This document shows positions 38,701 through 58,968 of a stretch of DNA of 64,000 nt, piece after piece (position 1 is the stretch's first letter; each line of letters opens with the position of its first letter). The translations under genes and the position numbers were made by a program. Origin of the DNA: an uncultured candidate division Zixibacteria bacterium (GTDB lineage: Bacteria > Zixibacteria > MSB-5A5 > GN15 > FEB-12); contig CAVPPI010000004.1 in assembly GCA_963707365.1 (NCBI GenBank), positions 981,469 through 1,045,468 of the forward strand, read 5' to 3'. Below the pieces are notes generated by a model. That model had not been told where the DNA came from and ran no database searches. It worked only from the letters and a program-made list of their open reading frames with translations.

Positions 38701-38986
38701 CGGCGCTCAACACCCACGGCGTCTCTTTGAAGTCCGGAGATTTATAGGTAACATCCTCCAGTACTATTTTGGCCTGACACGCGTCGGGGTATTGCCAACC
38801 ATCCGGCACAGCCGCAATGATAGCTTCGCATACTTCCTGAACTCCAGCATCGGGCTGATTAAGAATCTCCTCGACACGGTACAGGCAGTTTAGTTCTTTC
38901 GCTCTTTCCTGAAGCGACTCGAGAAGTTTATCGACCGACTTTTTGTTATTTTCCATAAGTGACAACCCCTTGCCTATTTTTGCCAT
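35752..38986 (-). CDS. large PEP/pyruvate-binding (PPDK_N) domain protein with an N-terminal sensor-like module and a C-terminal nucleotidyltransferase domain; one apparent frameshift near 37680
   Basis: ORF 37634-38986 holds KELNCLYRVEE, a sensor-type module, then LGGKSAGMYL. It stops making sense after ...HSFKNSR. ORF 35752-37758 continues PPEFIKGLSLALDDFEERPLIVRSSSLLEDRIGAAFSGKY. Its tail has GSTKNASAGAASDIDLLV, a minimal NTase signature. Confidence 0.65.
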
Positions 38987-42155: not shown

Positions 42156-42633
42156 TTCAAATATTCCTTCTTATGTTAGACCCGTTGTAAGTAACTACCA
42201 GCACTTCGTGTATTATAGCCGTAACCAGAAACGAACCGTTAGTTGTTTCCGAATCCGGAATGTCAAAGTGGGCAATTTTCAAACTCAAAGATCTCATCTT
42301 CAAACACACACATTATGTGACTTTTTTCACAAACACTAATATATTAATATCGTCAACTTGTCAAGACATTTAGAACAAATTTGACGAATATGTCAGTTTT
42401 TTTTGATTGAAAGTCTATGTCCGGGTCCTCTTTGTGATTCCACATACGTAGTCGGTCTCCCTGCCCAGGCGGCCCTCCCTGGCACCGCACCGGGATCGAG
42501 CAGTTAATTCAGCCCGATTTAACCTCATAACCGACTATCACTTCTGGCGCTGCGGCGGCAGCTAAAGGCTCTTTTGTCTGTCTCCCTGCCTCGCCTTATC
42601 CTCAGCGTTGATTTTGTCCGGAGCAAACACTAC

Positions 42634-42662: not shown

Positions 42663-42752
42663 AAAACGGCTCAAACAATGACATTCCCCCCTTATGTAGC
42701 AGATAGGGCTTGTGATTTTTTTCACTATTTTACCGTAGGAAAAGGAGGTCCA

Positions 42753-44134
42753 ATGAATCTATCCCCGCAAACCAAAGACACCCCCGTCAGGAATTCAATT
42801 GTCTCTCTTCTATTTACGATAGGGACACTGCTGTGTCTGCTGACGACTGTATCCGCGGGCGAAGGCCCCATTGGGTCAAAGTCATATGATGATTACGACA
42901 CCCCGGACTATTGCGGAAGTTCCTGCCACACTGACTTCTATCAGCAGTGGCGGCAGGCCATGATGTCGCAGTCGTATACTCATCACTGGGATGAGATCGA
43001 GTACTTCAAACTGGCTATCCCCCACGCCGAAAAGGACCCGGTTGTCGCCGAGGTGAAAGCCGGATGTAACGGATGCCATGCCCCGATCTCCTTTCTTACC
43101 GGTGATGTTCCCCCCCGCGCCCCGAAGAGGGCAGCCGGGCTAACGAGGGTGTACAGTGCGACCTCTGCCACACAATTACCGGTCACGAGGGAGACACTCC
43201 GTTCAATTTCAATTTCATTTCCAGTCCCGGAAACGTGAAATATGGTCCCCGCACGGGCGACAACTCCCCGGCGCATGAAATGGCCCAATCCGATTTTCTG
43301 CACACGGCCGAATTCTGTGGCGCCTGTCACAACGAAAAAGACCCCTACGGTATATGGGTGAAATCGACTCACCTTGAATGGAAAGAGGGCCCCTATTCGG
43401 CCCAGGGTGTCATTTGTCAGGATTGCCACATGACCTACGCACCCGGCCAGAGCGCCTCTATGGGAACCGAGTACCCGGATGTCCGCCAGCACCTGTTCCA
43501 CGGCGCCCACGATCCGGGCAAGGTTCGTGGAACTATCGAACTGCGTATTCATCCGGATATTACCGAGGCGGAACCGGGCGAGCCGATCAAGTTTACGATT
43601 GCTCTGTTCAACCAGAAGACCGGGCATAAATTTCCAACCGGCTCGGTTGAGGATCGCATCGTGTGGATGCACGTTGAGGCGACCGATGCTGAAGGCAAAG
43701 TTTATCACCTTCCGGTCGATTTGAAAGGTTTCGAGGGCGAGGAGTATACTGTTGGCGCCGATGTGCTCGCCTATCAGGACATGGGCATCGCCCTCGGTGA
43801 TCCCAATTTCAAGGGCGTGCAGCGCGATGGTATCCCTGTCGGCGATCGCATATTCCGCATGCCTTATTTTGACCCACAGGGACGCATGACTATTCAACAG
43901 TGGAACACAAAGAGCCTTGGTGTGGATTACCGGCTTGGCCCCCGTGAGACCAAACTGGAAACGTGCACCTTCACTCTGCCGGACGACGCCGCCCCGGGAC
44001 CGATGACCGTCAAGGCCACCTTAAACTATCAGAAACTGGTGAAACCGGTGGCTGATTTTCTCGAGGTCCCCGAAGATGAAGCTGAAATCATAGTAGTTAA
44101 CGATCACTTTACTACAATAGAGGTCCTGCCATAA
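42753..44134 (+). CDS. secreted pentaheme c-type cytochrome (cytochrome c554/NrfA-like heme packing plus a C-terminal beta-rich domain), apparent frameshift in the C7 run at 43110-43116
   Basis: AAAGGAGG precedes the ATG at 42753, and a signal anchor (LLFTIGTLLCLLTTVSA) follows. After frame repair there are five CxxCH motifs: CGSSCH, CNGCH, CDLCH, CGACH and CQDCH. The second frame reads ...PPRPEEGSRANEGVQCDLCHTITGHEGD. Confidence 0.75.
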
Positions 44135-44151
44135 TCAAGGAGGAGGAGAAT

Positions 44152-45343
44152 ATGAAACAACCACTGAAATTGGTTCTCACAGCTGCAGATGGTATTCGGC
44201 ATCACTGCCGCCGCGCTGGTTGTACAGACCGATACGGCTAACGCCATCCCGGCTTTCGCTCGCAAATACTCCATGTCATGTACCACCTGCCACGCACCGT
44301 ATCCGCGGCTCAAAGACTACGGTGATGAGTTTGCCGGTAACGGCTTTACGCTCAAAGATCAGGACGCTCCCCGTTACTATCAGAAAACGGGCGATGAAGA
44401 TCTTGCCCTGATACGAGATCTTCCCTTTGCAATTCGCCTGGAAGGCTTCTTCAAACATCAGACCGAAACCGACAAAGACCTCGACTTCACCACACCGTAC
44501 AATGTCAAACTGCTGTCCGGAGGCGCCCTGTCGAAGAATATCGCCTATTACTTTTACTTTTTCTTCAGCGAGCGCGGCGATGTAGCCGGGCTTGAAGACG
44601 CTTTCCTGATGTTCAACAACGTCTTCAACAGCGAATTGGATATTTATGTCGGTCAGTTCCAGGTATCCGACCCGCTCTTCAAACGTGAACTGCGCCTGAC
44701 CTATGACGACTACCAGATCTATCGAACGACAGTGGGAGCCTCGGATATCAACCTGACTTATGATCGCGGTATCATGCTGACTTACGGATTCGAAAGCGGC
44801 ACCGATGTTATCGTCGAGGTTGTCAACGGTAACGGGTTGGTTGCCGCCGATGATTTCAGAACCTACGACAAGGACAAGTATAAAAACTTCGCAGGACGGA
44901 TATCTCAGGATATCGGCGCCTATGTCAGAATAGGCGGGTTCGGGTACTACGGCAAAGAAGCTCGCTTCGGCAACACCAACGAGGTCTGGATGCTGGCCCC
45001 TGATTTCACCGTCACGCCCAACGACAAACTTACGCTCAACGTGCAATATGTTGAGCGGAGTGATGACAACCCGAACCTTGTCTTGTTGAAACCTGATGAC
45101 GAAGTAAAGACCAGCGGTGCTTTCGCGGAACTGGTGTTCATGCCCGATGGTGAGCGCAGCAAGGTATATGCGGTCGGGCTCTACAACTGGGTCGACTCCG
45201 ACTTCGATGGCGAGGACTATGAGTCCCTCACCGGTCACGTAGGCTACCTGCTGCAAACAAACATCCGGCTGATAGCCGAAGACACTTACGATATTCAGAA
45301 CGAGGAAAATCGTTTTGTGGTCGGATTCATAGCGGCTTTCTAA
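44152..45343 (+). CDS. fused monoheme cytochrome - outer-membrane beta-barrel (Cyc2-like architecture); probable frameshift within the signal peptide (~44185-44190)
   Basis: AAGGAGGAGGAGAAT precedes the ATG at 44152 (MKQPLKLVLTAA). The frame then shifts to ...FGITAAALVVQTDTANA / IPAFARKYSMSCTTCHAPYPRL. There is a single CxxCH right after the cleavage site. About 350 aa of alternating beta-strand pattern follow, ending ...RFVVGFIAAF (terminal Phe). Confidence 0.6.
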
Positions 45344-45496
45344 GTCACACCGGTTTGTTCAAAAAATCAACAAGGGCGGCTTTCACAAGGCCGCCCTTTC
45401 AATTGTCGCACAGCAACTGCGGCATATTCCAGATAATTTCACTACTCATGTCCATTGAATGCGAAAATTTGTCACCCGGTTGCCGATACTATCTGT

Positions 45497-46285
45497 ATGC
45501 GCTACGTTTGCTGGGTCACAGCCACACTGTTCGCATTGGCGTTCGCCTTAACTGCGAAATTCACATTTCACGCTGACAGCGTTTCTTCGGGCGGGCGATT
45601 CGATGATCCTCATCGTGATATTCCGTGCACCGACTGTCATCCCCTGAGAGCCGACGTAAGCTCAGGCGGTCCGGTCAACCGGCAGTTCCGGCAACAGTGT
45701 GAGAAATGTCACGATCCCGGCGCCGCCAATCTGACAGGCATTCCTCTGAATTTCCACAACTCGCGCGAACGGTCATGTTCCGAATGCCACAGCTTTCACA
45801 ACACGGAACAGATATCTCTGGCAAACTCGAGTTTCCTGGTAAGCTTTGAAAACAGTTTCCAGAGGGGACAATGCTATTGTTGCCACGGACCGGGGGAAAA
45901 CATCAAGAGCCTGTCGCCGGGACACAGGGCCGCAGCGGCCATTTTCCATTCGGACTTCGCTGTTCTGGGAAGGCTGAGTTCTTCGCAAACGTGCTTGATA
46001 TGTCATTCCGATGCCAGTGCTCTTCCGGTCGGCGAAATTTCACAATACGCCAAAGGCGCCCCGCGTTTCAAAGAACACGGTAGTCACCCTGTCGGCGTGG
46101 AAGTCATTCCCGGCACCGGCAAACCCGGTAACGCCATCATCGATCCGATTGGCCACAAGATCCAACTTTTCAACAATCGCATGGAATGCTCAAGTTGCCA
46201 CTCACTCTCGGCGGGACACACGCCCTTCAGGCTGGTCTACCCCACCAGAAATGAGTTATGCCGGGCCTGTCATAAAATCGATTAG
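45497..46285 (+). CDS. secreted heptaheme c-type cytochrome
   Basis: The leader is MRYVCWVTATLFALAFALTA (the ORF track gives an alternative TTG at 45455). There are seven CxxCH motifs in ~235 mature residues: CTDCH, CEKCH, CSECH, CYCCH, CLICH, CSSCH and CRACH. Confidence 0.75.
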   Translation: MRYVCWVTATLFALAFALTAKFTFHADSVSSGGRFDDPHRDIPCTDCHPLRADVSSGGPVNRQFRQQCEKCHDPGAANLTGIPLNFHNSRERSCSECHSFHNTEQISLANSSFLVSFENSFQRGQCYCCHGPGENIKSLSPGHRAAAAIFHSDFAVLGRLSSSQTCLICHSDASALPVGEISQYAKGAPRFKEHGSHPVGVEVIPGTGKPGNAIIDPIGHKIQLFNNRMECSSCHSLSAGHTPFRLVYPTRNELCRACHKID

Positions 46286-46320
46286 CCCTTATCTTCTCTA
46301 AGGCAAAAAACCTCACAAAA

Positions 46321-46347
46321 AAGAGGAGAGCTTTTGGCTCTCCTCTT
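46321..46347 (-). terminator. intrinsic terminator of the OmcS-like gene (the hairpin is shared by the convergent genes)
   Basis: A perfect 11-bp stem aagaggagagc/gctctcctctt encloses a 5-nt loop. On the minus strand it is followed by TTTTTTGTG. It begins 34 nt after the stop at 46381. Confidence 0.6.
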
Positions 46348-46380
46348 AGTGAGGGATGCAATCTGAAAATTCAGATTACA

Positions 46381-47436
46381 TTAACCACCTTGTACGTGAC
46401 ACTGATTACATACTTCCTGATAACGAGTGCCGTCGCCGTTCTCGCCCCAGTTGGCCGCACCGGTCGCCCAGATAATGCCGAAAGCATTCTGGTTACCGTG
46501 GGCTTTGTGGCAAGACATACAGCTCGGGGTCAGATCAGCAGGAGCGCCGGTCCATGGCGTTCCCCAGTCACCCCAGTCACCGGTCGCACTCATCACCTGA
46601 ACGCGGTAGGCGCGTCCGGAGAACGTAGCGGTGCTCGAGTGACCACCCGTTATGGCGCCAATATTGGCGTCTGCGGTCGGGTGACGATACCATTCGGTCT
46701 GGGTCGGAGCAGCGGCGTTTCTCATGTTAGCGTCGGCTGACGTACCATGGAAATCCGTGTGACAGCCCTGACACCAGGCACCGTAAGCCGAGCCGGTCGG
46801 ATCCGGTTCGTTGAAGAACACGTTCTGAATGTCATAGTGGTCGCCACCAAAGGCGGCCGACGCTTCATAGATGTCCTTCGTCAGGTCATTGGTTCCAACA
46901 GCGTAGCTCAGACCGGGGCCTGATACTCCGCCTGCGGCATAAAGCACATTGCGATAGGGATTGTTGCCCGCGGCAACGAATCCACCATAACCGTGTTGCT
47001 GGTGACAGTCAACGCAACTGAGACCATCGGCGTTGGCGAAAGTACCCCCCGGGGCAACATCCGTCGAACCGAGAGTGTGACCCGTCGCATCGAAATACGG
47101 GGCCGTGTTATCACGGTTCAGGGCGCCTGCCTGGCGGCCGTTCGTCGGAACATTACCGCCATTGGCAGCCAGCACGTCAGGAGCGAATGTCTGATTGTCG
47201 TGACAGGCTAAACAGAGATTGTTTATCTCGTCACGCAACAGAAAATGATACGGACCTGAAGCACCGAGGCCGACCGTGATGCCGGTACCATCGGAATTGT
47301 ACCCGTGAGTCTGACTGTAGTGCATCACGTGGCACTCAGCACAGTTGAGCGATGCACCCGTATGGTAATCGCCGGCAATTGCGCTGGAGGCAAGAAGCGC
47401 GAACGCCGCGATTCCTACCAGGATGAGTTTCTTCAT
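46381..47436 (-). CDS. OmcS-family hexaheme c-type cytochrome (candidate nanowire-forming cytochrome)
   Basis: GGAGG sits 8 nt before the ATG at 47436. The leader is MKKLILVGIAAFALLASSAIA. There are six CxxCH motifs. Motif-for-motif, the order matches my recollection of G. sulfurreducens OmcS: YHTGASLNCAECHVMHYS, LL..x7..CLACH, GH...APGGTF...CVDCHQQHG, AWCQGCHTDFH...RHP, CMSCHKAHG and a C-terminal CNQCH. Confidence 0.75.
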   Translation of the reverse strand: MKKLILVGIAAFALLASSAIAGDYHTGASLNCAECHVMHYSQTHGYNSDGTGITVGLGASGPYHFLLRDEINNLCLACHDNQTFAPDVLAANGGNVPTNGRQAGALNRDNTAPYFDATGHTLGSTDVAPGGTFANADGLSCVDCHQQHGYGGFVAAGNNPYRNVLYAAGGVSGPGLSYAVGTNDLTKDIYEASAAFGGDHYDIQNVFFNEPDPTGSAYGAWCQGCHTDFHGTSADANMRNAAAPTQTEWYRHPTADANIGAITGGHSSTATFSGRAYRVQVMSATGDWGDWGTPWTGAPADLTPSCMSCHKAHGNQNAFGIIWATGAANWGENGDGTRYQEVCNQCHVQGG

Positions 47437-47560
47437 GAGTTTGACCTCCATACCTTTGCTCTTAAAAAGTTAAACTCGTTGAATTATGGTTAATAAGGCT
47501 TAGTTCTGAAAAATGAGAATACGTTTCAGGACGACCAAACTCCCCGAAAGGAGCACAGCA

Positions 47561-47576
47561 TGTGAGAAATTTCACA
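47561..47576. promoter_or_regulatory. perfect CRP/FNR-type palindrome TGTGA-N6-TCACA in the leader of the OmcS-like gene
   Basis: The sequence is TGTGAGAAATTTCACA, centred ~132 nt upstream of the ATG at 47436. Both half-sites match the CRP-family consensus exactly. Confidence 0.4.
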
Positions 47577-47658
47577 AGCGTCAATTTTGATTGTCCGGTC
47601 TTTGTTAGCCCCTTTTTAGTCATGTTGTCTGCGTCCTAGCTACCAACGTGGTAATATA

Positions 47659-47674
47659 TCACAATACCTTGTGA
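47659..47674. promoter_or_regulatory. second 16-bp inverted repeat, TCACA-N6-TGTGA
   Basis: The sequence is TCACAATACCTTGTGA, centred 98 bp upstream of the first palindrome. The half-sites are in swapped order. A weak TTGACA-17-TACCTT promoter candidate lies at 47697-47725. Confidence 0.3.
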
Positions 47675-47833
47675 AAAAAGTATCTTTACCTGCGAAAAGG
47701 TAATAAAAACGGTCTTATTTGTCAAGTGCTTTGTGTGGAATTTTTTGCAGGAATCTGTTGTGCGGATGCAAGTTGCCATTTTTACGTATGCTCCATAGGT
47801 GTAACTATAAAGAATACGTAAGGTTAGGCGAAT

Positions 47834-48860
47834 TCATTTGGTCTCAAAACGCTGGATTCGACTGCCTATTCGCTCTACGATAAAGAAAACTGAGTCATTT
47901 GCCGCCGCGATATCGGCCGGATATCGGAATTCACCGGGGCTAATACCATATCCCCCAACTATTTCACGAAATGTCCCGGAGCTGTCAAAGACTTTTACCA
48001 CCTGCCGAAGGCCATCGGCGACCCAAATGGCTGGCCGCCCTTCCCTATCGGACATAATCTCTATTCCGGACGGAAACGACACGTCGCCGCGCTCAATCTG
48101 ATGACCGCTGAATCCATATAGAAAAGCACCATTGGTATCGAATACTTTGATTGCCGGTTCAGCGTACAGGTCTGTCACGAACAAACGATCCCGCCAGATC
48201 TGAATTCCCAGAGGAGTATTGAACTCAGAAGGTCCCCCGCCTTTTTGACCGATAGTCCTTTTCGAGTTCAAAATACTCATCAAGCACCATTATGGTGACA
48301 ATATCGCCGGTCGTTATGACGTAGAGATTGTCCTCGCTGTCGATAGCGAGGCTCTGCGGCTTTATCGTCAGGGAGGTGTCGCCATAAAGCGTGTTCAGGT
48401 ATACTTTTTGAAGCGATTTGCCCCTGAAATCGAGCACATCCAGATAATCCGCAAGGTTGTCGGAGAGGATTATCTCCCCCAGCTTGTTTACTGCCAGATC
48501 GCGTGGTTCTCCTTTGATCAGTCGACCGGACCGCTGCTCGATAACAAAGTGCTCGAACGAGTATTTGGGGTTGAGCAACTTATCGTATATGACCACCCGG
48601 CCATTGCCGGCATCGGTGACAAAAAGTTCATCGGCCGATTTATCGAAAAAGAGGGAACCGGGGCTGCGAAGGTTCTTCTGCCAACCGTCATCAAAGGCAA
48701 TTGCGGTAATATTGAAGTCGAGGGCCGGTGGTGTGTCCTGTGCTGCAACCGCCACAGGAGATGCCAGACAAAGAAGCAACGAGGCAATAACCACGGGCGC
48801 GACTTTGCGAATCTCAGTTCTTTGAAAACAGATCGGAGAGTTCACTAACGGCATCCTCAA
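47834..48860 (-). CDS. secreted NHL-repeat beta-propeller protein, one apparent frameshift near 48230-48280
   Basis: The signal peptide is VVIASLLLCLASPVAVAAQD. Repeated NHL-type blades include LFVTDAGNGRVVIYD, LAVNKLGEIILSD and LFVTDLYAEPAIKVFD. ORFs 48225-48860 and 47834-48283 are consecutive parts of one gene. Confidence 0.7.
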
Positions 48861-49404
48861 CCATCTTTTTGGCCAGGTTATCGGCCGACCTCACGGCGCC
48901 GATACCGAAGGCAATTTCCCCCTTGTCGCCACGACCGTTGGAATTGGCCACCCATACGGTTTTTTTCGTAGCACAATCGATCAGGCGGCAATTGAACGCA
49001 ACTTCGGGCACCCGTCCCAAAAAGCTGTTATCATATTCTTCATACTCAATCGCAGCTCCTGTCAACAGAAGATCAACACCGAGACTGGCAGCGAGGCTGT
49101 CAATCTGAGCATCGGAAAGCAGCGACGAAGATCTGATTCTGAATTGTCTGAGGCTTTCGTACAATTGGCCGAATTCCACAGTCTCAAACCGGCTCTGTCC
49201 GGCCATGGCGTTCAGAAAATAATCGGTTAGTTTTTCGGCAGCCTTTTCCCTTCCGCTAAGATTCTCAAACGGCAAAACGGCTACTCGAGATGTGGAAGGC
49301 AACTGACTGTCGATGCGTCTTTTGGCCGTCAGATTTGACGCACATCCGGTCAGCATCAATATTATCAGTCCTATCGGAATTGTCCGTGTCAGAATATGGA
49401 ACAT
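48814..49404 (-). CDS. lipoprotein (LpoB/TolB-N-like, VAVLPFENLSG motif)
   Basis: The ATG at 49404 opens MFHILTRTIPIGLIILMLTGCAS, which contains a lipobox L-T-G-C. The VAVLPFENLSGREKAAEKLTDYF motif resembles small periplasmic-face OM lipoproteins. Confidence 0.6.
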   Translation of the reverse strand: MFHILTRTIPIGLIILMLTGCASNLTAKRRIDSQLPSTSRVAVLPFENLSGREKAAEKLTDYFLNAMAGQSRFETVEFGQLYESLRQFRIRSSSLLSDAQIDSLAASLGVDLLLTGAAIEYEEYDNSFLGRVPEVAFNCRLIDCATKKTVWVANSNGRGDKGEIAFGIGAVRSADNLAKKMVEDAVSELSDLFSKN

Positions 49405-49408
49405 ACCG

Positions 49409-50014
49409 TTACCTCGATACTCTGCCGAATGATTCGGCCACTTCATGACACACTTTCGTAGTCATCGCGCCCAGCGTATGGGTTTCCCCGAAGGAAAAGA
49501 CAGGAAACTTGGGACCACCCTTGCGGGTGGTTTCATAGCTCCAGACTACCCGGCCGGTCTGGCAGTCGATAAAACGGACAATCACCGCCACCAGAGGGAA
49601 TTCGTCCTGACCTGAACGCACCATCGTGAAGTCTTTAACGGCGCCCACGAATATGCCCTCGACTTGCGCCTGTTCACCGATAGCCATAGCCTGTTCGCTG
49701 GTCAGTTCATCCAGCGCGTTTACCATATCCTGTTTGACTACCGCCTTAACCACCTTCTCGACATCACCCATGTTGGCCACGGAAACCGTATTGAGCATAA
49801 GCAATTCGGTCACGAAGCTGGAGGTCACTTTGTCGGAAGCATTCTTGTCGGTGGTCAGATTTGAAAACGGCACGACCGCGACGCGCGAATAGAAGCCAAA
49901 ATCGGCCTCGTCGTTGACATACATCCGGTTGCTGCCGCACGATGCGAGCGTTAACAGAAAACCGAAAGCAAGAAAGAGCTTGAGCTTTAACATAGCATTA
50001 CCTGTTTTTTTCAT
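49409..50014 (-). CDS. lipoprotein, paralog-like to the downstream one (VAVVPFSNLT motif; DUF799-like)
   Basis: The lipobox is LTLASCGS. It shares the motif VAVVPFSNLTTDKNASDKVTSSF and the GxxIEG/LLTGAV-type pattern with the 48814-49404 protein. It overlaps the barrel gene stop by 4 nt. Confidence 0.6.
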   Translation of the reverse strand: MKKTGNAMLKLKLFLAFGFLLTLASCGSNRMYVNDEADFGFYSRVAVVPFSNLTTDKNASDKVTSSFVTELLMLNTVSVANMGDVEKVVKAVVKQDMVNALDELTSEQAMAIGEQAQVEGIFVGAVKDFTMVRSGQDEFPLVAVIVRFIDCQTGRVVWSYETTRKGGPKFPVFSFGETHTLGAMTTKVCHEVAESFGRVSR

Positions 50015-51745
50015 ATCTGTATACTTAACACACTTTGAATGGATTCGTTTACTATTTTTTCTCCCAGGGCATCCCGGGTACGGCTGTGCAGGTAGGCCAC
50101 CGAGAGCGTGACTTTCTGCGAAAGATACATCAGGATCTGCCCATTGACCGTACGCGGCCGGGTCTCAATCGATTCGAACTCACCGTCTTCTCCTACAAAA
50201 ATATCCCGCGTCTGTTTCTGTTCGTTGACCGAAAGATATAAATTAAAAGCCCGGCGAAAAGAATAACTGATATAGCCGGTGGCGGAACTCAGGCTGGACC
50301 TGACGGTACTCTTATAATTGCTGTGAATATAGGTGGCGTTCATATTAAGATTGGAGCGGGGCGTAAAAGTCAACCCGGCGTTGTAGTTTTCCGAAAAGGA
50401 CCTGTCGAATCTCAGTCTGTCGCCGATATAGAGCGCCGTTATTCTGAACCTGCCTTCGAGACGCCGCGTGAAATTCACCCTGGTGTCAAGCGAGCGGGTC
50501 AACTGATACCGCCGCTGCTCGTCAACCGGGTCACTATCGTGAGTCAGTGATATGTCTATAAAAGTCTTGATATACTTTCTCGGAAACAGATTCAACGATG
50601 CTTGATATGTATCAAGAATGTAGTCACCGTCGTTGACCGTGGCTATTACCGCTCCCGATGTATCCCTGATCGACACCAGCCTCGTGGACTGCTGGAAAAT
50701 CGTACGATTGAAAGTCAGACGGGTATCCACGCCGCTGCGGAAGTACCGGGTCAGCACCGCCCCGAGATTCGCATATTCCACTATATTATTGTCGCCGTTC
50801 TGACGATTGTTCTGATACCCCTTCCCCGCCTGAAAGCTGAGATAACCGGTCGGCGTGAATTCAGCCACGCCGGACATCGTCTGATTATCGTTCTCAATCA
50901 CCGTCTGCTGCTGTTCCGCCTCAAGAAACCGACCGGAGTAACTCAGATTGACAGAGACTTTATCGATTGCGTTTAGAAGCAACAGCGAGTTTACAGAGTG
51001 AGTGAACGAAGTCTGGTTCAGTATCGAGTGGCTCTCACGGCGCGTATCGTAATAGTTGTAAGTAGCACTGGCGTAGCCGAGACCGACAAGGTTACGATTG
51101 AATCCCACAGTCCCCGAGTAAGTACGGGTGGTGACATCTCTTCCCCCCGGAAGGTTACTGACTTGCCTCAGATTATTGTAGTTGGCCCTGAAAGTCAGCG
51201 GGTCAAGAGAATACGAGCTTTCCAAAACGACGTTACGATTGAAAGCATCAAATTTGGGCTCGAGTCTCTTTGTCGAAATTACTGAAATGTGAATAAACGA
51301 GATTGAAAGTCGGATAGTCGGTATAAGCGAGCTGGGCCGTTATTCGCCAGTCACGATAGTAAACATCGACAAACTCCGTAACGGCAGCTGTATAACTGCG
51401 CCGTTTATAGGGCGAGTAACGGGCGTTGAAGGCATAACCATAGCTCTTGAGATCAAGATAATAGACCGGCTGAAACTCATGATAGTTGGCAAACGATTGC
51501 TCTCGCCGCTGAAGATTGGCCGTCAGACGGATATGGTTCTTATAAAACAGGACATCTTCATAGTTGATGATAGCCGTCTCCCGCGTAATATCATCCTCAT
51601 CGGCTTCGCCGTTTTGCTGTTTGATATGTTCGTACGAAAGAGAAGCGTTCCCGAACAATCGCCCGGCCACAGCGGTATCGCACCATGGACCAACCAGTGC
51701 TGACAGAGAGAATAAAATCGCAAATACAGCGAAGCGATACATCAA
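50011..51745 (-). CDS. large outer-membrane beta-barrel protein (~575 aa), one apparent frameshift near 51225-51250
   Basis: The signal peptide is MMYRFAVFAILFSLSALVGPW. Alternating aromatic/polar strands rich in Y, N, S, T and R run throughout. ORF 51248-51745 ends ...SNFDKE, and the next frame continues RLEPKFDAFNRNVVLESSYSLDP (ORF 50011-51225). No CxxCH is present. Confidence 0.55.
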
Positions 51746-53904
51746 TAGTCTTCTCCCGTAGGATGATGACAGTTAGCGTAACAGGTACTGGTCGTAGCAT
51801 CAACTTCCTCCCAGCCGCTTATGTGACCACCGAAGATGAATGCGTGCGACGGCGCCCCGGCAGTCGGGGAACAGGGAGGAAAGATGTAATTGGAGCCGTG
51901 AATATTCCCGATTCCGGATCCGTTGTCACAGGCAGGATCCTGGTCGTCATCATAGCGCCCGGCATGACAACCGCGGCAGGACTGACCGTTGCGTCCGGCT
52001 CCCCCCGGATCGGTATGGGCGCGACGGTCGTGGTCTGCGAATCGCGATACATTCTCCGAATTGAACACATAGTAGTTTTCATCATGACAGCGCACACAGA
52101 ACTGCCTCTGGGCGCTCGGGAACAGCGTCCCGATAACAGGCTCGCGAAAATACGTCTCGACATACAACATGCCGCTGTTATCACTGCCGTGCCCCGTCGT
52201 TTCATGACAGTCAAAGCAGCTTATCACGTCATGCAAAGCCGTCTGGTTGAACGGCGGCAACATCGTGGCCGTGAAGTTGTTCACCGAACCCGGCACTGTA
52301 TAGGGATTGTTCCCCTGTGCCCGAACCGGGTGATAGGAAGAATTCAGAGGATCGAACTGGGTATATACATCGATAACTGTTGCCGCCGGGTCAGAGAAAG
52401 GCGCCAGCGATGATCCCCCCGGCACCTGTGCTTCAACCGACATAGCGCCGTTGCCGTCGTGACACTTCAGACAGAAAGAATTCTGCACCTCCACCACCCA
52501 ACTTTCAAGAAAGGCGCTGTTCAAATCGCGCGTGAAACTGCTGAAACCGGTAAGGGCCTGACCGTTATCGGGGTCTCTCAGTTCCACAAAACCGTTGGCA
52601 TGATAAGCACCATTGATATCGCCGCTGAACGCGATTCCTTCCATATGGCACACACCGCAGTCATTATTGGTGACCGTGTCGGTCACACCGATAGCATTGA
52701 CATGGTGAGCGTTCAGACCAAACTCACCGAGGATGGCTCGACGCGTACCCCGGGCGGTAGCGTGACACGCTACACAGGAGCCGCCGATACCGGGATTATG
52801 AACGTTATTGGCTGTGGGCGTTGAGTAATCGCGGCCGTGGCACTCGTAGCAATGTTCGGTCGACGCAGCCGTGTGTTCCGTAACAGAGGCCGGCAAAGGC
52901 GGAAGGGTGAGCCCCTCGATAGCATCGGCCTGGGCGACACCATCAGATGACGGATGACAGCCAAAACAGAAGCGCCGGACCTGCGCGTTATCATTACGGA
53001 TGTCTGTCAGCCCGTACCAGCCGGGCCTTTGATCGCTCAGGAGGTAGTTGTTTCCCCCCAACCCGCCGTAACCAATAGAACCGTGCGGGTTGTGACAATC
53101 ATAGCACGGCAGACGCATCCCCGATGTCACATATCCCCCGCCCGTGGTAATTCCGTGCCCGCTACTGGCGTTGGGGTTTATTGATCTGTCATAATAATAG
53201 GCTATCGTGCGTGAGGTATCATCCATACCGACCGGTCCGTCAACACGGTGGCATTCCAGACAGAGGGCATAATTCTCCGCCTCCAGCCCAAGCTGCGAAC
53301 CGGTGATACCGCTATAGGTCGTATCGAGCATATCGTGTGGAGCGACTGTACCGTGCGGATTGTGACAGTTGTCGCAGGAACCGTAACCGAACCAATCTTT
53401 GACAGGCATGTCCTGGTCGGCATAGTGCGGTGAGAAAAGACTGTTCTCCCAGACGACCCGTCCCGGCCACCTCACCCGGTTCTCCAGGCCAGGCAACCGC
53501 GTGCCGCCGCTGTTGAATTCAAAATAACCCGGATCCGATGAACCGATTGGCAGCCGGTCGGATTCCTGAGCCGGATAACCCGCTGTGCCCCCCGTCGGCT
53601 GGTCAGCGTGACAACCGCCTGAAGAAGCAGAAAAACATAGCTCGTTGGAATTGTAAGTAAACAAGCCGTATGGGAACGTATTGTCAGGATCATGGCTCAC
53701 ATGACACTGGGCGCAACTCCCCTGAGGATAATCCGGCGTTCGCAGCACGCCGTTATCAACCGAACCGTGAGGAGATTGCCTATACTGACTGTCATCGGCG
53801 CCGACCGACGCCGCAAACCAGAAAAGTATAGCGCCAAGGGCAACAATCGCCCGGGCGAGGCGCATCGATGAAATGTATCTTATTTGTTGTGACATTGCTG
53901 ACAC
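51742..53904 (-). CDS. secreted multiheme c-type cytochrome, 12 canonical CxxCH plus two atypical motifs
   Basis: The leader is MRLARAIVALGAILFWFAASVGA (an alternative start is at 53865). By direct reading it has 12 CxxCH, a CYANCH (CX3CH) near the C-terminus and NELCFSASSGGCH (CX7CH). The last sits where the hexaheme paralog has NELCLSCH. Confidence 0.8.
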   Translation of the reverse strand: MSAMSQQIRYISSMRLARAIVALGAILFWFAASVGADDSQYRQSPHGSVDNGVLRTPDYPQGSCAQCHVSHDPDNTFPYGLFTYNSNELCFSASSGGCHADQPTGGTAGYPAQESDRLPIGSSDPGYFEFNSGGTRLPGLENRVRWPGRVVWENSLFSPHYADQDMPVKDWFGYGSCDNCHNPHGTVAPHDMLDTTYSGITGSQLGLEAENYALCLECHRVDGPVGMDDTSRTIAYYYDRSINPNASSGHGITTGGGYVTSGMRLPCYDCHNPHGSIGYGGLGGNNYLLSDQRPGWYGLTDIRNDNAQVRRFCFGCHPSSDGVAQADAIEGLTLPPLPASVTEHTAASTEHCYECHGRDYSTPTANNVHNPGIGGSCVACHATARGTRRAILGEFGLNAHHVNAIGVTDTVTNNDCGVCHMEGIAFSGDINGAYHANGFVELRDPDNGQALTGFSSFTRDLNSAFLESWVVEVQNSFCLKCHDGNGAMSVEAQVPGGSSLAPFSDPAATVIDVYTQFDPLNSSYHPVRAQGNNPYTVPGSVNNFTATMLPPFNQTALHDVISCFDCHETTGHGSDNSGMLYVETYFREPVIGTLFPSAQRQFCVRCHDENYYVFNSENVSRFADHDRRAHTDPGGAGRNGQSCRGCHAGRYDDDQDPACDNGSGIGNIHGSNYIFPPCSPTAGAPSHAFIFGGHISGWEEVDATTSTCYANCHHPTGEDY

Positions 53905-54842
53905 CCCGCGATATAATCTAAATCACCTTCAATATATGACCACAGCAACGATTTCTCATCCGAACCGCCGTGGGCCTTGTGACAACTCCCGCAGAATATC
54001 CGATTGGATTCCGCCGGCTGACGCGAGCTAATAAAATCACTTGCCGTTGGTACTTCGAACGGTAACCTGATAATACCATTGGCATCATCAGCGAACCCTT
54101 CCCCCGTTCCGGAAATCCAGTGGGGAACATCCGTATGGCCATCGACTGGAAACTCGTTAATCGCCACATCCACCGGATGGCTATTGAAGTGGGCCGGTGG
54201 TGACGCCACACTATTTGTCTCGAGCTGATTGTGGCAGGAAACGCACCAGGCCGAGTAGGCCTGTCTGTATCCGATGTTGTCCCTGCTGTACGCCGTCGCC
54301 GATCCGCCGGCAGTCGGCGGAATGTCCGGAGAAAATTCAGTGAAGAGATCGCTGCCCTCTTCCAGAACAAGGGAGTCACCCACACCGGCCGGATCGAAAA
54401 GCAAGTTGCGGTAGTTGCCGTTACCGTGCGGAGCGTGACAACTGGCGCAGTTTAACTCTACGAACTGAGCTTCCACTTGAAGGGGCACGATACTCCCCAG
54501 CGCCAGGTTGTGGCCCATCGGATTATCAATGCCGATGATATCAAAATATCCTCCGGCACTCTGGCCGGACAGGGCCGCATCGTACATCTGCACCGGCCGC
54601 ATGATATCCGGCGCTGTCGGATCGGTACCATCATGGCACGACAGGCACAATTCGTTGACAGTATTTTTCAGAAGTAAAGTCGAGAACGGACCGCCGGGTA
54701 GCGGCTCTCCTTCTTTGGAGGCGTGCTGAATGTGACAATCCTGACAGCGTAGATTCGGTTCAACGTGCCACTGCCCGCTCCGTACGCCGGAAGCGATAAA
54801 AAATAATGTAAGCAAAGTCATTGTTCGAGTCATCACAGTCAC
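53880..54842 (-). CDS. OmcS-family-like hexaheme c-type cytochrome, operon-internal paralog
   Basis: The leader is MTLLTLFFIASGV. The six CxxCH motifs follow the same order and spacing logic as the 46381-47436 protein: CQDCHIQH, LLL..x7..CLSCHDG, GHNL...CASCHAPHGNGNYRNLL, AWCVSCH...HP, CGSCHKAHG and a C-terminal CQQCHNK. Confidence 0.7.
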   Translation of the reverse strand: MTVMTRTMTLLTLFFIASGVRSGQWHVEPNLRCQDCHIQHASKEGEPLPGGPFSTLLLKNTVNELCLSCHDGTDPTAPDIMRPVQMYDAALSGQSAGGYFDIIGIDNPMGHNLALGSIVPLQVEAQFVELNCASCHAPHGNGNYRNLLFDPAGVGDSLVLEEGSDLFTEFSPDIPPTAGGSATAYSRDNIGYRQAYSAWCVSCHNQLETNSVASPPAHFNSHPVDVAINEFPVDGHTDVPHWISGTGEGFADDANGIIRLPFEVPTASDFISSRQPAESNRIFCGSCHKAHGGSDEKSLLWSYIEGDLDYIAGCQQCHNK

Positions 54843-54844
54843 CT

Positions 54845-55801
54845 CTATTGCAGCGTGTAGAACAGCAATCTGCCGGTCTCCTCGAGCACAGCCATCCGAT
54901 TGTCTATTGTCCCGAGCATGGCCACCGGACTAATCGTGCTATTTTCGAAAGTCAGTACCGACAGTTGGGTGCCGGTCTGGTCAAAAATGCGAAACTGGCT
55001 GTTGGTATCATCAGCCACCCAGACGAATCCGCGAGTGTCAACCGCCACCGCAGCCGCCTCCCATCCTCTCTGCTCCGATGGCTGATTCCACCCTCCCTGA
55101 TAAAGAAATTTCCCATCGATCGCAAATACCTGCATCGGAAAGTTCTTCTGGTCGGCCACTATCAGTTTGCCGGGCGCCGCGGCAGTCATATACGCCGGGG
55201 CAAGCAACTTACCCTTGCCGGAACCGTCGCGAACAACAATCTCCTTAAATTCCCATTGCTGATCGAACCGGTAGATACAACCTGCATGGCGGTCCAGGAT
55301 AAGATAACTCCCGGTCGGTTCACGGACAATCTGGTCGATAGAGAATTTATCAGAAATACCGTTCAGGTCCGCCACTGTATCAATCACACCGGTATTGTAT
55401 TCATTAACGGCAAATATGATTGTCTTGTTCGCCAACGTGTAAAGAAGACGGGAGTCGGATTCGAAGCAAATAGAGCGAGGTTGTTCAAGTCTTACCTGCT
55501 CTCCCACCGTCCAGAGAAACCGGCCCTCCAAATCTACAATTACAATACGATTTGTGCTGAGGTCACTGATGGCAATCTTTTCGCCGTTCGGAGAGACAGT
55601 CATCGCCGATGGACGGTCGAGTTGGTAACGACCGCCTATCAAAATATGTTGACTCTCAATAGCCTGGGCAAGAGCCACGGAAACGTTTGCCGTGACGACT
55701 ATACCGGCTACGAGTAGCCAGAGGCAGGAGAAATAAGTTGCTATCTTGTACGCAGTGCTCTCCCTGGCCCTTAATGAGACACCGTGTGACAAATGATGCA
55801 C
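54845..55801 (-). CDS. secreted NHL-repeat beta-propeller protein
   Basis: A hydrophobic leader (CLWLLVAGIVVTANVSVALA) is followed by repeated blades: IAISDLSTNRIVIVDLEGRF, YLILDRHAGCIYRFD, LIVADQKNFPMQVFAIDGKF and VWVADDTNSQFRIFD. The start is uncertain because it overlaps the upstream gene end. Confidence 0.7.
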   Translation of the reverse strand: MHHLSHGVSLRARESTAYKIATYFSCLWLLVAGIVVTANVSVALAQAIESQHILIGGRYQLDRPSAMTVSPNGEKIAISDLSTNRIVIVDLEGRFLWTVGEQVRLEQPRSICFESDSRLLYTLANKTIIFAVNEYNTGVIDTVADLNGISDKFSIDQIVREPTGSYLILDRHAGCIYRFDQQWEFKEIVVRDGSGKGKLLAPAYMTAAAPGKLIVADQKNFPMQVFAIDGKFLYQGGWNQPSEQRGWEAAAVAVDTRGFVWVADDTNSQFRIFDQTGTQLSVLTFENSTISPVAMLGTIDNRMAVLEETGRLLFYTLQ

Positions 55802-58800
55802 AGCTTTCTATCTTTTTCAGCCACCAGTATTGCCGCGTAGTCAGACGAGTGTGGAGAGTGGCAACCGACACAGTTGAGAGGCTCCTTGGTCCGCGGGTCT
55901 GTCACACCAACACCCATCGGGTGATAGTGCGTCTCAACAGCACCCTCGTGACAGGTCAGGCAAAGCTCCATTATGTCGGATGTAGCCAGTAAACCGGCAT
56001 TGGTACTCGTATGTGGTTGATGGCAGTTGCCGCAGTCTTCAAAAGCCACGGCGTGTTGATTCTTACCTTTAAATTCCGAACCCTTATGACACGAGAGGCA
56101 CATCGACGGACCCTCTTTGAGAAGAAGACTCGAACCGTACCCGACGTGCGGACCATGACATTGAACACAGCCGTCCGCTTTGGTCAATGGAGCATGTACA
56201 ACAGCATTGGCGGTGGTCTCCAGAAAATCCTCGTGACATGCGAAACACATCTGGTTAACCGGAGCCACGAACTCATGGGCACTCATTCCATCGTGACACG
56301 AAGTGCATTCCCCATCGGCAAACGGAGCGTGCATGTCGGGCAGCAGAAGTCCTTTCGAACCGGCCGGACCGGCGTGAGCCGCGTGGCAGTTCTGGCAATC
56401 GACGCCTTCAAGGCTGAACCCTTTGTGCGCCGTACGCAGGTCGCGCGACGACAGATCGTGACACTGCCCGCAAAGCTCCATCTTGGAGTCAGTCAGCAGA
56501 GCCGTCTGATTTCCGGCATGAGCCACGTGGCAGGCGCCGCAATCTCCATCGGCCACCGGCGCATGCGGAGCACCCTCGGTGATCTGGCGGTTTATATCTT
56601 CGTGACAGGATATACAGAAACTCTCTGCCGGTTTGGTAGTCAGGGCCGGATAGGCCGACGAGTGAGGCTTGTGGCACTCAAGACACTGGCCTTCCTCGAA
56701 CGGGCGATGGTTGACAGCCATCTTCTGCTGGTCTTTTATATCTTCGTGACAGGACACACAGAGCAAACTCCCGTCAAGCCTCAGCAGACCCTTGTAGTCG
56801 GCAGCGTGCAAACTGTGGCAGGAACTGCACTCTTCACCGGCAAACGGAGCATGCTGGTGTTCCAATTCAGCCGATTCCGCCACCGTCTCGTGACACGCAC
56901 CGCAGAGATCCATGGTCGAAGCTACGAGAGCAACTTTGTTATCAGCGCCCTTCTCGTGGCAATCCTCACAACCACCATCGGCAAACGGCGGATGAAGCAT
57001 ATTTCTTACCAGCTTGTCCTGCTCGCTGACGTGCGGATTATGACATTCCAGACAGTCAGCCGTCGTTATATCATACCCCCCGTGAACTGTCGTCAGGGCA
57101 TCATCCACATCATGACACGTTACACAAAGATCCGGAGCGCCGGCAATCACAAAGCCGACATTGTCCGAACCGTGAGCGGCATGGCAGGCATCACATTCGC
57201 CCTGCGCTACCGGAGCGTGGGCATTCTGCTTGCGGAAAGCCTCCTTTAACTCATCGTGACAGGTGTAGCATAAATCGGCGGAGATGCCCGTTAGCTTGGG
57301 AAGCTGACCTACCATCAGTCCACCGACGTTAATTTTGGTCATCCTACCGGTGACAAGCTTGGCTTCATTACCGCCGTGAGGATTGTGACAACCGGCGCAA
57401 TCACTTTCAGCAGCCGGCGTATGAACAAATTCTTTTTCAAGGTCAAGACCTTCATAGTCGTGGCAGGATGCACACAGGTCGTTGTTTCGCGCCGTCAACA
57501 GGTGCAGATTGTCTGCACTGTAGTGCGGCTGATGGCAACCCTGGCAATCATCCACAGCCGGAGCATGAGGATTGGCCATGTTGACTCGCTTATTGATATC
57601 AACGTGGCAGGCAAGACACATCGCAGCACCTTCACCGCGGACCAGATGCGGCGTGTCGCTGTAGTGCGGCAAATGGCAGTCGGAACACTCGCCGGTCAGG
57701 TATGGCTGATGCCCCGAGGAGGCATTCAACGCCTCGCGGTCAGGTTCGTGGCATTCCCCGCACAACTGCGCCGACGGAGCTTTCAGAAGCCCCTCGGGAG
57801 TCCCCTCGTGAGGCTTGTGGCAGCCGAGACAGTCATCGAGGGCGGCATGAACGTTCGAGGCAGCATCGCGCGCAGCGGCAAAATCTTTATGACAACCAAG
57901 ACACAGCGAAGCATCGTCGGCCTTCGCCAACGAAGCATTATCAGAACCGTGTACCTCGTGACACCCACTGCATTCACCGGTCACTACCGGCATATGCGGC
58001 CTCTGACCACCTCCGGTCAATACCGCGTCGTGGCACTCACCGCACAGAGTTCGCTGGTCCGCCTTGAGAAGATTGCCGAACCGCGATGAGTGCGCAGTGT
58101 GGCAATTGTCGCAATTGTCAGCCTCGACAGCGGGATGAGGATGCGATTTGGAGATATTGTCAACGATACCATCATGACAGGCCGAACACAGTTCACCCAC
58201 CGATATTCCCTCTTCAAAAGCTACTTTTCCATCGGCATCAGGAAGAGAGTGACAGGTCTCGCACTCACCCGAAGCAAACGGCGCATGAGCATCATCGGCG
58301 AGCAAACCTTTTGTATTCGAGGCATGGGCGGCATGGCAATCACTGCAAGGCAGGTCTCCCGCATTGCGTTCTTTGTGTACGCTCACCCAGGTTTCATCGG
58401 ATTGATCATGGCAGGAACCGCACAGACTGTTGATTTCGGCCGTGAGAAGGCCGGGGTAACTGCTGTTGTGAGAAGTATGGCAGGTCAGGCACTCCATCTG
58501 GTCGTACGGGGCGTGGATGAATTCTTTCGCGCGGGCGGCATCCATATTGTCCTGGTGGCACATTAAACAGAAATGCTCCACCGGCGCATCGGCGGCCGGC
58601 TCCCAGAGCATACCGGTTTCGTTGGAACCGTGCGGATTATGGCAATCCCAGCATTTGCCGGAGGCAACCGGGAAGTGTACGCTTCCCTGGCTGTACTTTT
58701 CTTTGAGGTCGGCGTGACAACTATAACACAATTCGGACGTAACGTCCTGAAGGATCAGCTTCTGAGCAAAGCCGTGGCGTTTGTGACAACTCTCGCAGTT

Positions 58801-58968
58801 CTCGTCTTTGATCGGCTTGTGCGCAAATTTCACAGCCGAATAAACCTGCTTTTCTTTCTGGTGACAGTCGTAACATGTCTTTGCCGCAAACGCAGACGTG
58901 GCAAAAGCCAACGTGATTACAATGGTAAAGCTGATCGCTGTTTTGTATGTGACAAGTGTCCGCCGCAC
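55771..58968 (-). CDS. giant secreted multiheme c-type cytochrome with 42 CxxCH motifs (paired-CXXCH repeat architecture)
   Basis: The leader is ISFTIVITLAFATSAFA. I counted 42 CxxCH in 1065 aa by hand, about one per 25 residues. They are arranged as ~21 repeats of LCxxCH-(~15-20 aa with HxP)-CxxCHxxH. Confidence 0.9.
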   Translation of the reverse strand: MRRTLVTYKTAISFTIVITLAFATSAFAAKTCYDCHQKEKQVYSAVKFAHKPIKDENCESCHKRHGFAQKLILQDVTSELCYSCHADLKEKYSQGSVHFPVASGKCWDCHNPHGSNETGMLWEPAADAPVEHFCLMCHQDNMDAARAKEFIHAPYDQMECLTCHTSHNSSYPGLLTAEINSLCGSCHDQSDETWVSVHKERNAGDLPCSDCHAAHASNTKGLLADDAHAPFASGECETCHSLPDADGKVAFEEGISVGELCSACHDGIVDNISKSHPHPAVEADNCDNCHTAHSSRFGNLLKADQRTLCGECHDAVLTGGGQRPHMPVVTGECSGCHEVHGSDNASLAKADDASLCLGCHKDFAAARDAASNVHAALDDCLGCHKPHEGTPEGLLKAPSAQLCGECHEPDREALNASSGHQPYLTGECSDCHLPHYSDTPHLVRGEGAAMCLACHVDINKRVNMANPHAPAVDDCQGCHQPHYSADNLHLLTARNNDLCASCHDYEGLDLEKEFVHTPAAESDCAGCHNPHGGNEAKLVTGRMTKINVGGLMVGQLPKLTGISADLCYTCHDELKEAFRKQNAHAPVAQGECDACHAAHGSDNVGFVIAGAPDLCVTCHDVDDALTTVHGGYDITTADCLECHNPHVSEQDKLVRNMLHPPFADGGCEDCHEKGADNKVALVASTMDLCGACHETVAESAELEHQHAPFAGEECSSCHSLHAADYKGLLRLDGSLLCVSCHEDIKDQQKMAVNHRPFEEGQCLECHKPHSSAYPALTTKPAESFCISCHEDINRQITEGAPHAPVADGDCGACHVAHAGNQTALLTDSKMELCGQCHDLSSRDLRTAHKGFSLEGVDCQNCHAAHAGPAGSKGLLLPDMHAPFADGECTSCHDGMSAHEFVAPVNQMCFACHEDFLETTANAVVHAPLTKADGCVQCHGPHVGYGSSLLLKEGPSMCLSCHKGSEFKGKNQHAVAFEDCGNCHQPHTSTNAGLLATSDIMELCLTCHEGAVETHYHPMGVGVTDPRTKEPLNCVGCHSPHSSDYAAILVAEKDRKLCIICHTVSH

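Follow-up and report, generated by a model that had tools for sequence, protein, structure and literature searches.

Does an uncultured bacterium outside the Desulfuromonadia build cytochrome nanowires of the OmcS type? The question is raised by a stretch of 64,000 nucleotides (nt) from an uncultured Zixibacteria bacterium (contig CAVPPI010000004.1; the whole stretch is hereafter called the window), whose minus strand carries a gene which an earlier reading of the DNA, the original prediction, had taken for a monocistronic OmcS-family hexaheme cytochrome that conserves the histidine linking neighbouring subunits. OmcS filaments are the best-understood case of micrometre-scale biological electron transport, and have been shown mainly in Geobacter and close relatives. 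Here the OmcS relative adjoins relatives of the genes for OmcS wire assembly, and so this Zixibacteria-like bacterium probably builds an OmcS-like extracellular electron conduit. We put at roughly 0.55 the probability that the protein is a compact OmcS-type subunit which polymerises head to tail, with H39 ligating heme 5 of its neighbour, and functions as a nanowire.

The gene and its immediate signals are as follows:
46381..47436, minus strand: coding sequence of the OmcS-family hexaheme c-type cytochrome, a preprotein of 351 amino acids (aa), stop codon included
47445..47449, minus strand: Shine-Dalgarno sequence GGAGG, 8 nt 5' of the ATG at 47436; related loci have a purine-rich block at this place
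47374..47436, minus strand: Sec-type signal peptide, residues 1-21, MKKLILVGIAAFALLASSAIA followed by GDYH, assigned by inspection rather than by a predictor

The open reading frame (ORF) spans 46381..47451. The ATG at 47436 is its likely start, giving a 351-aa product that begins MKKLILVG, because GGAGG stands at 8-nt spacing from it and the alternative ATG at 47451 overlaps the GGAGG. The signal peptide has typical n-, h- and c-regions with an AIA-G junction and is without a lipobox Cys. It aligns with the signal peptide and mature F1-H2 of OmcS in both BLASTP and hhalign, and A21-G22-D23-Y24-H25 are invariant or nearly so across the family of OmcS-like proteins to which the window protein belongs (the window family). 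The mature protein of ~330 aa holds six CxxCH motifs (C32/C35/H36, C75/C78/H79, C141/C144/H145, C222/C225/H226, C306/C309/H310 and C343/C346/H347). The preprotein and its six motifs had thus been read correctly, and all of the motif strings quoted at the time are in the sequence; the OmcS strings set against them match real OmcS apart from one residue (APGGTYP, not APGGTFP). The chain stops right after heme 6, with no C-terminal extension of type 9 secretion system or PEP-CTERM type. The ORF is intact in the window, and every residue that is invariant among 39 close homologs is present.

Membership of the window protein in the OmcS family, which the original prediction had claimed, is near-certain and is borne out by sequence, profile and predicted fold. 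A phmmer search of all PDB chains with the single sequence placed OmcS (6EF8/6NEF) at the top (E 0.0017), with collinear sub-threshold pieces on the N- and C-terminal motifs, and a profile of the 39 homologs returned OmcS as the sole significant chain (E 4.2e-8). Pairwise BLASTP against Geobacter OmcS aligned residues 1-315 at 25% identity (E 3e-12). Profile-profile comparison by hhalign of the window family with the OmcS family, the latter collected using an OmcS sequence mostly recovered from printed alignments, gave a probability of 99.7% (E 3.2e-25). Public data contain more than 1000 homologs, mostly 335-360 aa long and from metagenome-assembled genomes (MAGs) named Zixibacteria or Eisenbacteria; an exhaustive profile search of 50%-identity cluster representatives found 931 at E <= 1e-3 and 202 at E <= 1e-30. 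A 132-sequence alignment drawn from these representatives yielded a second AlphaFold2 model, an apo monomer with a predicted local distance difference test score (pLDDT) of 91.3 and a predicted template modelling score (pTM) of 0.87. The model made from the shallow 39-sequence alignment had reached pLDDT 58, and Foldseek found no match for it. With the better model, the only match of Foldseek in the PDB was 6ef8_A, the OmcS nanowire (E 1.5e-7, probability 1.00, template modelling (TM) scores 0.48/0.42). Sequence, profile, profile-profile and Foldseek results together establish shared homology and fold with OmcS.

The heme ligands correspond as closely. The window CxxCH motifs at residues 32, 75, 141, 222, 306 and 343 align one to one with OmcS C9, C47, C140, C239, C328 and the heme-6 motif. 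In a joint alignment of 81 sequences (45 from the window family, 33 from the OmcS family including OmcS, OmcT, OscC and the hexaheme of Geotalea daltonii, and 3 paralogs) the six motifs align across all three sets. The candidate distal ligands H25, H39, H120, H148, H252 and H313 fall in this alignment on OmcS H2, H16, H110, H147, H257 and H335, and these six non-motif His are kept in 44-45 of the 45 window-family and 31-33 of the 33 OmcS-family sequences. Six motif His and six distal His add up to 12, the exact number of axial His that six bis-His hemes require. On the three points that could have overturned the OmcS assignment, then, we found a significant alignment, a compatible fold and a full set of distal His.

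OmcS has 12 His axial ligands, of which eleven come from the same subunit and one, at heme 5, from the neighbouring subunit (PMC6584659, Filman et al. 2019). In the window protein C32..H36 and H39, which form the pattern CxxCH-x-x-H, align with OmcS C9..H13 and H16. The inter-subunit ligand is reportedly OmcS His16, three residues after the heme-1 motif (Wang et al. 2019). Conservation of this position had been predicted and is real: H39 is invariant in the 39 close homologs, present in at least 90% of the 132 diverse homologs and kept in 44 of 45 window-family sequences in the joint alignment. Because OmcT, OscC and a paralog encoded in the same cluster (below) keep it as well, the His16 equivalent is a character of the family and not a marker of filament formation, and its conservation alone should not serve to call nanowires in metagenomes.

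Within the wider family the window proteins are, by their sequences, a separate and compact OmcS subfamily. Their mean internal identity is 40%, and that of the OmcS/OmcT/OscC clade is 60%; clustering of identity matrices by the unweighted pair group method with arithmetic mean separates three groups (window family, OmcS clade and paralogs of the 320-aa type described below) in 130 of 200 bootstrap replicates. Compared with OmcS (GSU2504 of G. sulfurreducens, 6EF8/6NEF, the subunit of a conductive extracellular filament), the window protein shares the Sec signal peptide, the six CxxCH in order, the six distal His at aligned positions including His16 as H39, the loop-rich fold, an NHL gene directly upstream and, in the same cluster, homologs of OscF, OscG and OscI together with a probable one of OscE. 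It differs in length, at ~330 against 407 mature residues or ~80 aa shorter, with shorter loops between hemes 2-3, 3-4 and 5-6, and in two extra His conserved in its family (H44, H230). Its gene is the last of its cluster and has its own promoter, whereas omcS is first; its host is an uncultured lineage of Fibrobacteres-Chlorobi-Bacteroidetes (FCB) type rather than one of the Desulfuromonadia. The OmcS paralogs OscC (GSU2501), OmcT (GSU2503) and OmcJ are hexahemes with the same motif and His inventory, and wherever the eight-gene osc block occurs in Geobacter OscC is found with it, much as the window protein is found with an Osc-like core. They are 55-66% identical to each other or to other members of the OmcS clade, but reach at most ~30% identity with the window family, whose place is outside this clade. 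The tetraheme OmcE filaments of G. sulfurreducens and Desulfuromonas soudanensis provide a working analogy, in which a His of the neighbouring subunit ligates a heme (PMC9473688); OmcE has four hemes rather than six and is without sequence or fold relationship to the window protein. One protein of 1879 aa (P0386) was considered as a tandem of OmcS-like modules and rejected, as it has a single complete module (residues 9-324) and, in a long C-terminal region, 18 unrelated CxxCH; OmcS-like modules thus exist as N-terminal domains of giant cytochromes too.

The neighbourhood of the gene is stronger evidence for the nanowire idea than the points cited in the original prediction, which described the gene as monocistronic. 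Its own promoter and terminator (below) bear out that description, which nevertheless overlooks that a conserved osc (omcS-companion)-like cluster on the minus strand ends with this gene. Upstream of it, in order of coordinates, lie:
47834..48860, minus strand: NHL-repeat beta-propeller gene (Pfam NHL/DUF5128; GSU2505-like), the next gene upstream of the OmcS-like one
48814..49446, minus strand: OscG-like lipoprotein, 210 aa, with a weak CsgG/LpoB-like Pfam match
49409..50014, minus strand: OscF-like lipoprotein, 201 aa, with a weak LpoB/GNA1162-like Pfam match
50011..51745, minus strand: heme-free protein of ~570 aa, probable OscE homolog, read as ORFs 51248-51745 and 50011-51225
51742..53904, minus strand: 12-heme cytochrome, 720 aa, whose N-terminal half corresponds to a 6-heme protein of 377-381 aa conserved in related clusters
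53880..54842, minus strand: second OmcS-family hexaheme, 320 aa, a paralog with the six motifs and six distal His including CxxCH-x-x-H
54845..55801, minus strand: second NHL-repeat protein, 318 aa, directly 5' of the 320-aa hexaheme
55771..58968, minus strand: 42-heme cytochrome, 1065 aa, OscI homolog (GSU2495 type, 26 hemes)

These genes were compared with the omcS locus of Geobacter and the locus of Geotalea daltonii, using osc labels from the published mapping, which equates oscC with GSU2501 and OscD-OscK with the eight-gene block GSU2500-2493; GSU2495 with its 26 hemes and OscH with its rotamase domain served as checks on the labels. In BLASTP the 201-aa lipoprotein matches G. daltonii OscF over its full length (E 1e-19), the 210-aa lipoprotein matches G. 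daltonii OscG in its C-terminal (E 3e-21) and N-terminal (1e-7) domains, and the 42-heme cytochrome matches G. daltonii OscI at 32% identity (E 2e-97). The last has 42 CxxCH in 21 paired-CXXCH Pfam repeats, and is ~1057-1065 aa long in the relatives L004 and L005. The NHL proteins of the cluster match the NHL-like gene upstream of omcS in Geobacter and Geotalea (E 1e-4 to 1e-7), and the 318-aa NHL protein also has a weak match to OscD (E 8e-4). The heme-free protein, a single 571-aa gene in L004, has no significant BLASTP match to OscE (E 0.018). An hhalign comparison of its 50-sequence profile with a two-sequence OscE template gave 95.3% (E 2e-8) over only 137 N-terminal columns, against 0.1-0.3% for the controls OscD, OscH, OscB and OscI, and we regard it as a probable OscE homolog. 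The 320-aa hexaheme matches OmcS (E 2e-9) and the 351-aa homolog of L004 (E 1.5e-22); since it, too, is directly preceded by an NHL gene, the NHL-hexaheme pair is duplicated in the window. An NHL-like gene directly precedes omcS or the oscC-like gene in Geobacter and Geotalea as well.

Set against the osc cluster GSU2505/2504-GSU2493 as described in PMC13194489 and bioRxiv 10.1101/2025.11.06.686851, the window has in common with it the NHL gene, one or more hexahemes, OscF, OscG and a giant OscI-type cytochrome, with a probable OscE, all on one strand. The Geobacter cluster has in addition OscB (spermine-synthase-like), OscD (a heme-binding propeller) and OscH (a SurA-type prolyl isomerase), none of which was detected in the window; its OscI has 26 hemes rather than 42, its NHL-hexaheme pair is not duplicated, and its order differs from the permuted one of the window, where the OmcS-like gene comes last. 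PMC13194489 cites Shen et al. 2025 for the proposal that OscE, OscF and OscG serve the secretion of OmcS, and that OscH contributes to folding and OscD to morphology.

Does this association hold beyond a single genome? A scan of one genome per GTDB species returned 207 genomes with a relative of the OmcS-like protein, and loci were counted in the best 80 of these, all of them MAGs, with labels that include Zixibacteria, Eisenbacteria, Ignavibacteria, Gemmatimonadota, Acidobacteriota, Planctomycetota, Latescibacterota, Krumholzibacteriia and others. In ~72 of these 80 loci the gene immediately 5' on the same strand is an NHL gene, and within 10 kb an OscF-like gene is found in 57, an OscG-like gene in 52 and an OscI-like gene in 57; a large heme-free ORF, in most cases of 540-660 aa, stands directly 5' of OscF in 62. 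The osc-like core thus recurs in ~60/80 loci across many uncultured phyla. Two layouts stand out: the Zixibacteria type, as in the window, with the OmcS-like gene last, and an Eisenbacteria type (~30 of the 80 loci) which reads NHL, OmcS-like, 6-heme cytochrome, ORF in the OscE position, OscF, OscG, OscI and shares its order with the Geobacter osc operon. Of the arguments for the OmcS-like protein as a substrate of an Osc-type system for export and assembly, this linkage across phyla is the strongest.

We consider it likely that the protein acts in extracellular electron transfer with the Osc-like module in its service, because it combines a Sec signal, hemes that are all bis-His and leave no catalytic site, the lack of a C-terminal sorting domain and this conserved linkage. 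The protein would be exported by Sec and then loaded with its six bis-His c-type hemes in the periplasm. An OscE/F/G-like module, in which the two LpoB/CsgG-like lipoproteins combine with the ~570-aa heme-free protein, could carry it across the outer membrane, and the NHL propeller encoded directly upstream may assist in this step. Outside the cell, subunits would stack head to tail as in OmcS, with H39 completing the heme 5 coordination of the neighbour, to form a continuous heme chain through which electrons pass from or to the cell, with minerals or partner cells at the other end; the 42-heme OscI-like and 12-heme cytochromes could feed or drain this chain. Transcription starts from the gene's own conserved promoter, probably under a CRP/FNR-type regulator which also controls the neighbouring cytochrome operon. 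Electrons could flow in either direction; Zixibacteria have been proposed both to reduce and to oxidise iron (PMC8478452).

Several observations weigh against this reading. Filaments are known for no member of the window subfamily, and among the OmcS-clade homologs of G. sulfurreducens OmcS alone is known to polymerise. The window family is on average 24% and at most 30% identical to the OmcS/OmcT/OscC clade, so that a transfer of function from OmcS crosses that distance; the TM-score to OmcS is moderate (0.42-0.48) with a root-mean-square deviation of 10.7 A. The CxxCH-x-x-H pattern is found also in OmcT, OscC, the G. daltonii hexaheme and the 320-aa paralog, and this second hexaheme could be the polymerising one instead. 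A tblastn search over the 64-kb window found no OscH, which could be encoded elsewhere in the genome, and no OscD or OscB; across the 80 loci OscH occurs in 3, OscD in 7-8 and OscB in none. Three loci (L006, L030 and L033) are orphan copies without Osc-like neighbours within 10 kb. Finally, the NHL and OscE-like genes of the window carry frame changes relative to their intact L004 homologs.

Most of these points would fit a non-polymerising hexaheme comparable to OmcT, OscC and OmcJ, that is, a soluble or surface-attached monomeric carrier or a terminal reductase, with the Osc-like genes serving another substrate such as the 320-aa paralog. The restriction of wire formation to OmcS in G. sulfurreducens, the family-wide His16 equivalent, a second hexaheme with an NHL partner of its own, the orphan copies and the undetected OscH all lean that way, and we treat this as the main rival account, though a less probable one than the polymerising subunit. 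It has to contend with the heme 5 of OmcS, which takes one ligand from the neighbouring subunit (PMC6584659). It is, moreover, the 351-aa gene and not the 320-aa paralog that is linked to NHL, OscF, OscG and OscI in ~60 of the 80 loci, many of which are without a 320-type paralog. If His16 is indeed the OmcS ligand in question, the same order of six motifs and six His imposes the same need for a partner subunit on the window protein.

The frame changes raise a different concern, namely that the system is decaying or inactive in the window genome even if the family functions elsewhere. The NHL gene is split into ORFs 48225-48860 and 47834-48283 by a frame change within an A5/G5 run near 48260, while its L004 homolog is a single 327-aa protein, and the OscE-like gene reads as two because of one near 51254 in CCCAAATTT. 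Both junctions lie in homopolymer runs, and an unrelated ATP-binding cassette (ABC) exporter at 59677-61435 is likewise split into two ORFs. Indel errors are therefore the likeliest source, and the split genes probably reflect errors of long-read assembly rather than pseudogenes; with the OmcS-like ORF intact and all of its invariant residues in place, we find decay unlikely. A catalytic multiheme enzyme (a nitrite, hydroxylamine, sulfite or tetrathionate reductase, or an MtrC-like outer-membrane reductase) is highly improbable, since the weak matches to an MtrC/MtrF domain (26.4 bits, cut-off 30) and to NrfB/NrfH/DmsE-type models all fall under curated cut-offs (DmsE 28.5 against 192) and cover only heme-motif stretches, six CxxCH with six conserved distal His leave no open or Lys/Tyr-ligated site, and OmcS is the sole fold match.

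The sequences around the gene bear on its transcription and probable regulation, and four features stand out there:
47697..47725, minus strand: sigma-70-type promoter, -35 TTGACA at 47725-47720, 17-nt spacer, -10 TACCTT at 47702-47697
47561..47576, no strand assigned: perfect palindrome TGTGA-N6-TCACA (CRP/FNR-type operator consensus) in the leader of the OmcS-like gene
42316..42331, no strand assigned: second TGTGA-N6-TCACA palindrome, 5' of the convergent plus-strand cytochrome operon 42678-46285
46311..46347, minus strand: intrinsic terminator, hairpin 46347-46321 with an 11-bp stem (6 G-C pairs), a 5-nt loop and a T-run

A gap of 397 nt separates the OmcS-like gene from the next upstream ORF. 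When the leaders of the window and 16 related loci were aligned, the -35 element was found to be conserved as TTGACA in 15 of 17 and GTGACA in the other 2, followed 17 nt on by TAnnTT, and from the conserved position of this promoter we predict a leader of ~254 nt. A consensus promoter scan missed it and returned weak 9/12 matches only, because the -10 is weak. The terminator lies 34 nt past the stop codon, between convergent genes, and the interval singled out at the outset spans exactly from its hairpin (46321-46347) to the -35 hexamer (47720-47725). The long leader, strong ribosome-binding site and strong terminator that had been proposed are thus all present, as GGAGG at 8 nt, a promoter with a ~254-nt leader, and a hairpin with T-run; together with the 397-nt gap, the conserved promoter and the terminator support transcription as a single gene. 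As for the high expression with which they had been called consistent, codon usage is unremarkable (effective number of codons 48.9, against 47-61 for most neighbours, with a typical G+C content at third positions) and offers no strong evidence of very high expression or of recent transfer. Nor is a structured regulatory leader supported, as an Rfam search of leader and gene with E up to 1 returned no riboswitch or other RNA family and the folding energy of the leader RNA is not unusual against shuffled controls (z = -0.54).

The palindrome occurs twice in 64 kb, against 0.03 copies expected, and both copies stand 5' of multiheme cytochrome transcription units, from which a CRP/FNR-type regulator common to the two units can reasonably be inferred. 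It is conserved in most of the aligned leaders, and lies upstream of OmcS-like or NHL genes in 26 of 85 loci fetched, either 130-250 nt 5' of the OmcS-like start or 5' of the preceding NHL gene. Such recurrence would fit a conserved regulon made up of genes for extracellular electron transfer. The orphan copy of L006 (CP070777.1, Zixibacteria bin19) retains the conserved promoter and leader palindrome.

OmcS nanowires and the osc machinery are already known, and Shen et al. 2025 reportedly describe the latter as widespread. Our literature search, which did not extend to Shen et al. 2025, returned no paper linking OmcS or osc genes to Zixibacteria or Eisenbacteria specifically. Distinctive here are the compact subfamily, the lack of detectable OscH, OscD and OscB, the duplicated NHL-hexaheme pair, the 42-heme OscI, and the gene's own promoter with its conserved CRP/FNR-type site. 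The pattern of linkage, in which OscF, OscG, OscI, NHL and a probable OscE accompany the cytochrome and OscH, OscD and OscB go mostly undetected, defines a candidate minimal assembly system, and with it concrete targets for heterologous expression, for cryo-EM of environmental filaments and for iron-cycling metatranscriptomics. More tentatively, and at somewhat less than even odds in our estimate, at least 207 GTDB species genomes (Zixibacteria, Eisenbacteria, Gemmatimonadota, Acidobacteriota, Planctomycetota, Latescibacterota and others) may encode a compact OmcS nanowire, possibly nearer the ancestral form, that is assembled by a minimal core of NHL, OscE/F/G and an OscI-type cytochrome without OscH, OscD or OscB and is switched by a conserved CRP/FNR-type operator. 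If this is true, cytochrome nanowires would be common in uncultured sediment and groundwater phyla rather than a speciality of the Desulfuromonadia.

Two further observations concern the surroundings of the cluster. The convergent operon, which encodes c554-like, ExtKL/NrfH-like and 7-heme cytochromes, also contains a 384-aa protein (44189-45343, plus strand) with a signal peptide and one CxxCH close to the N-terminus, followed by ~350 aa of which the last is Phe. Neither Pfam nor NCBIfam returned a match for it, and its architecture resembles that of the Cyc2-type fused cytochrome-porins of iron oxidation. On the minus strand at 35752-40706, three consecutive ORFs match PPDK_N, the ATP-binding domain of pyruvate phosphate dikinase, in one case with a nucleotidyltransferase domain fused to it; the three may represent pieces of larger genes or an unusual array of paralogs.

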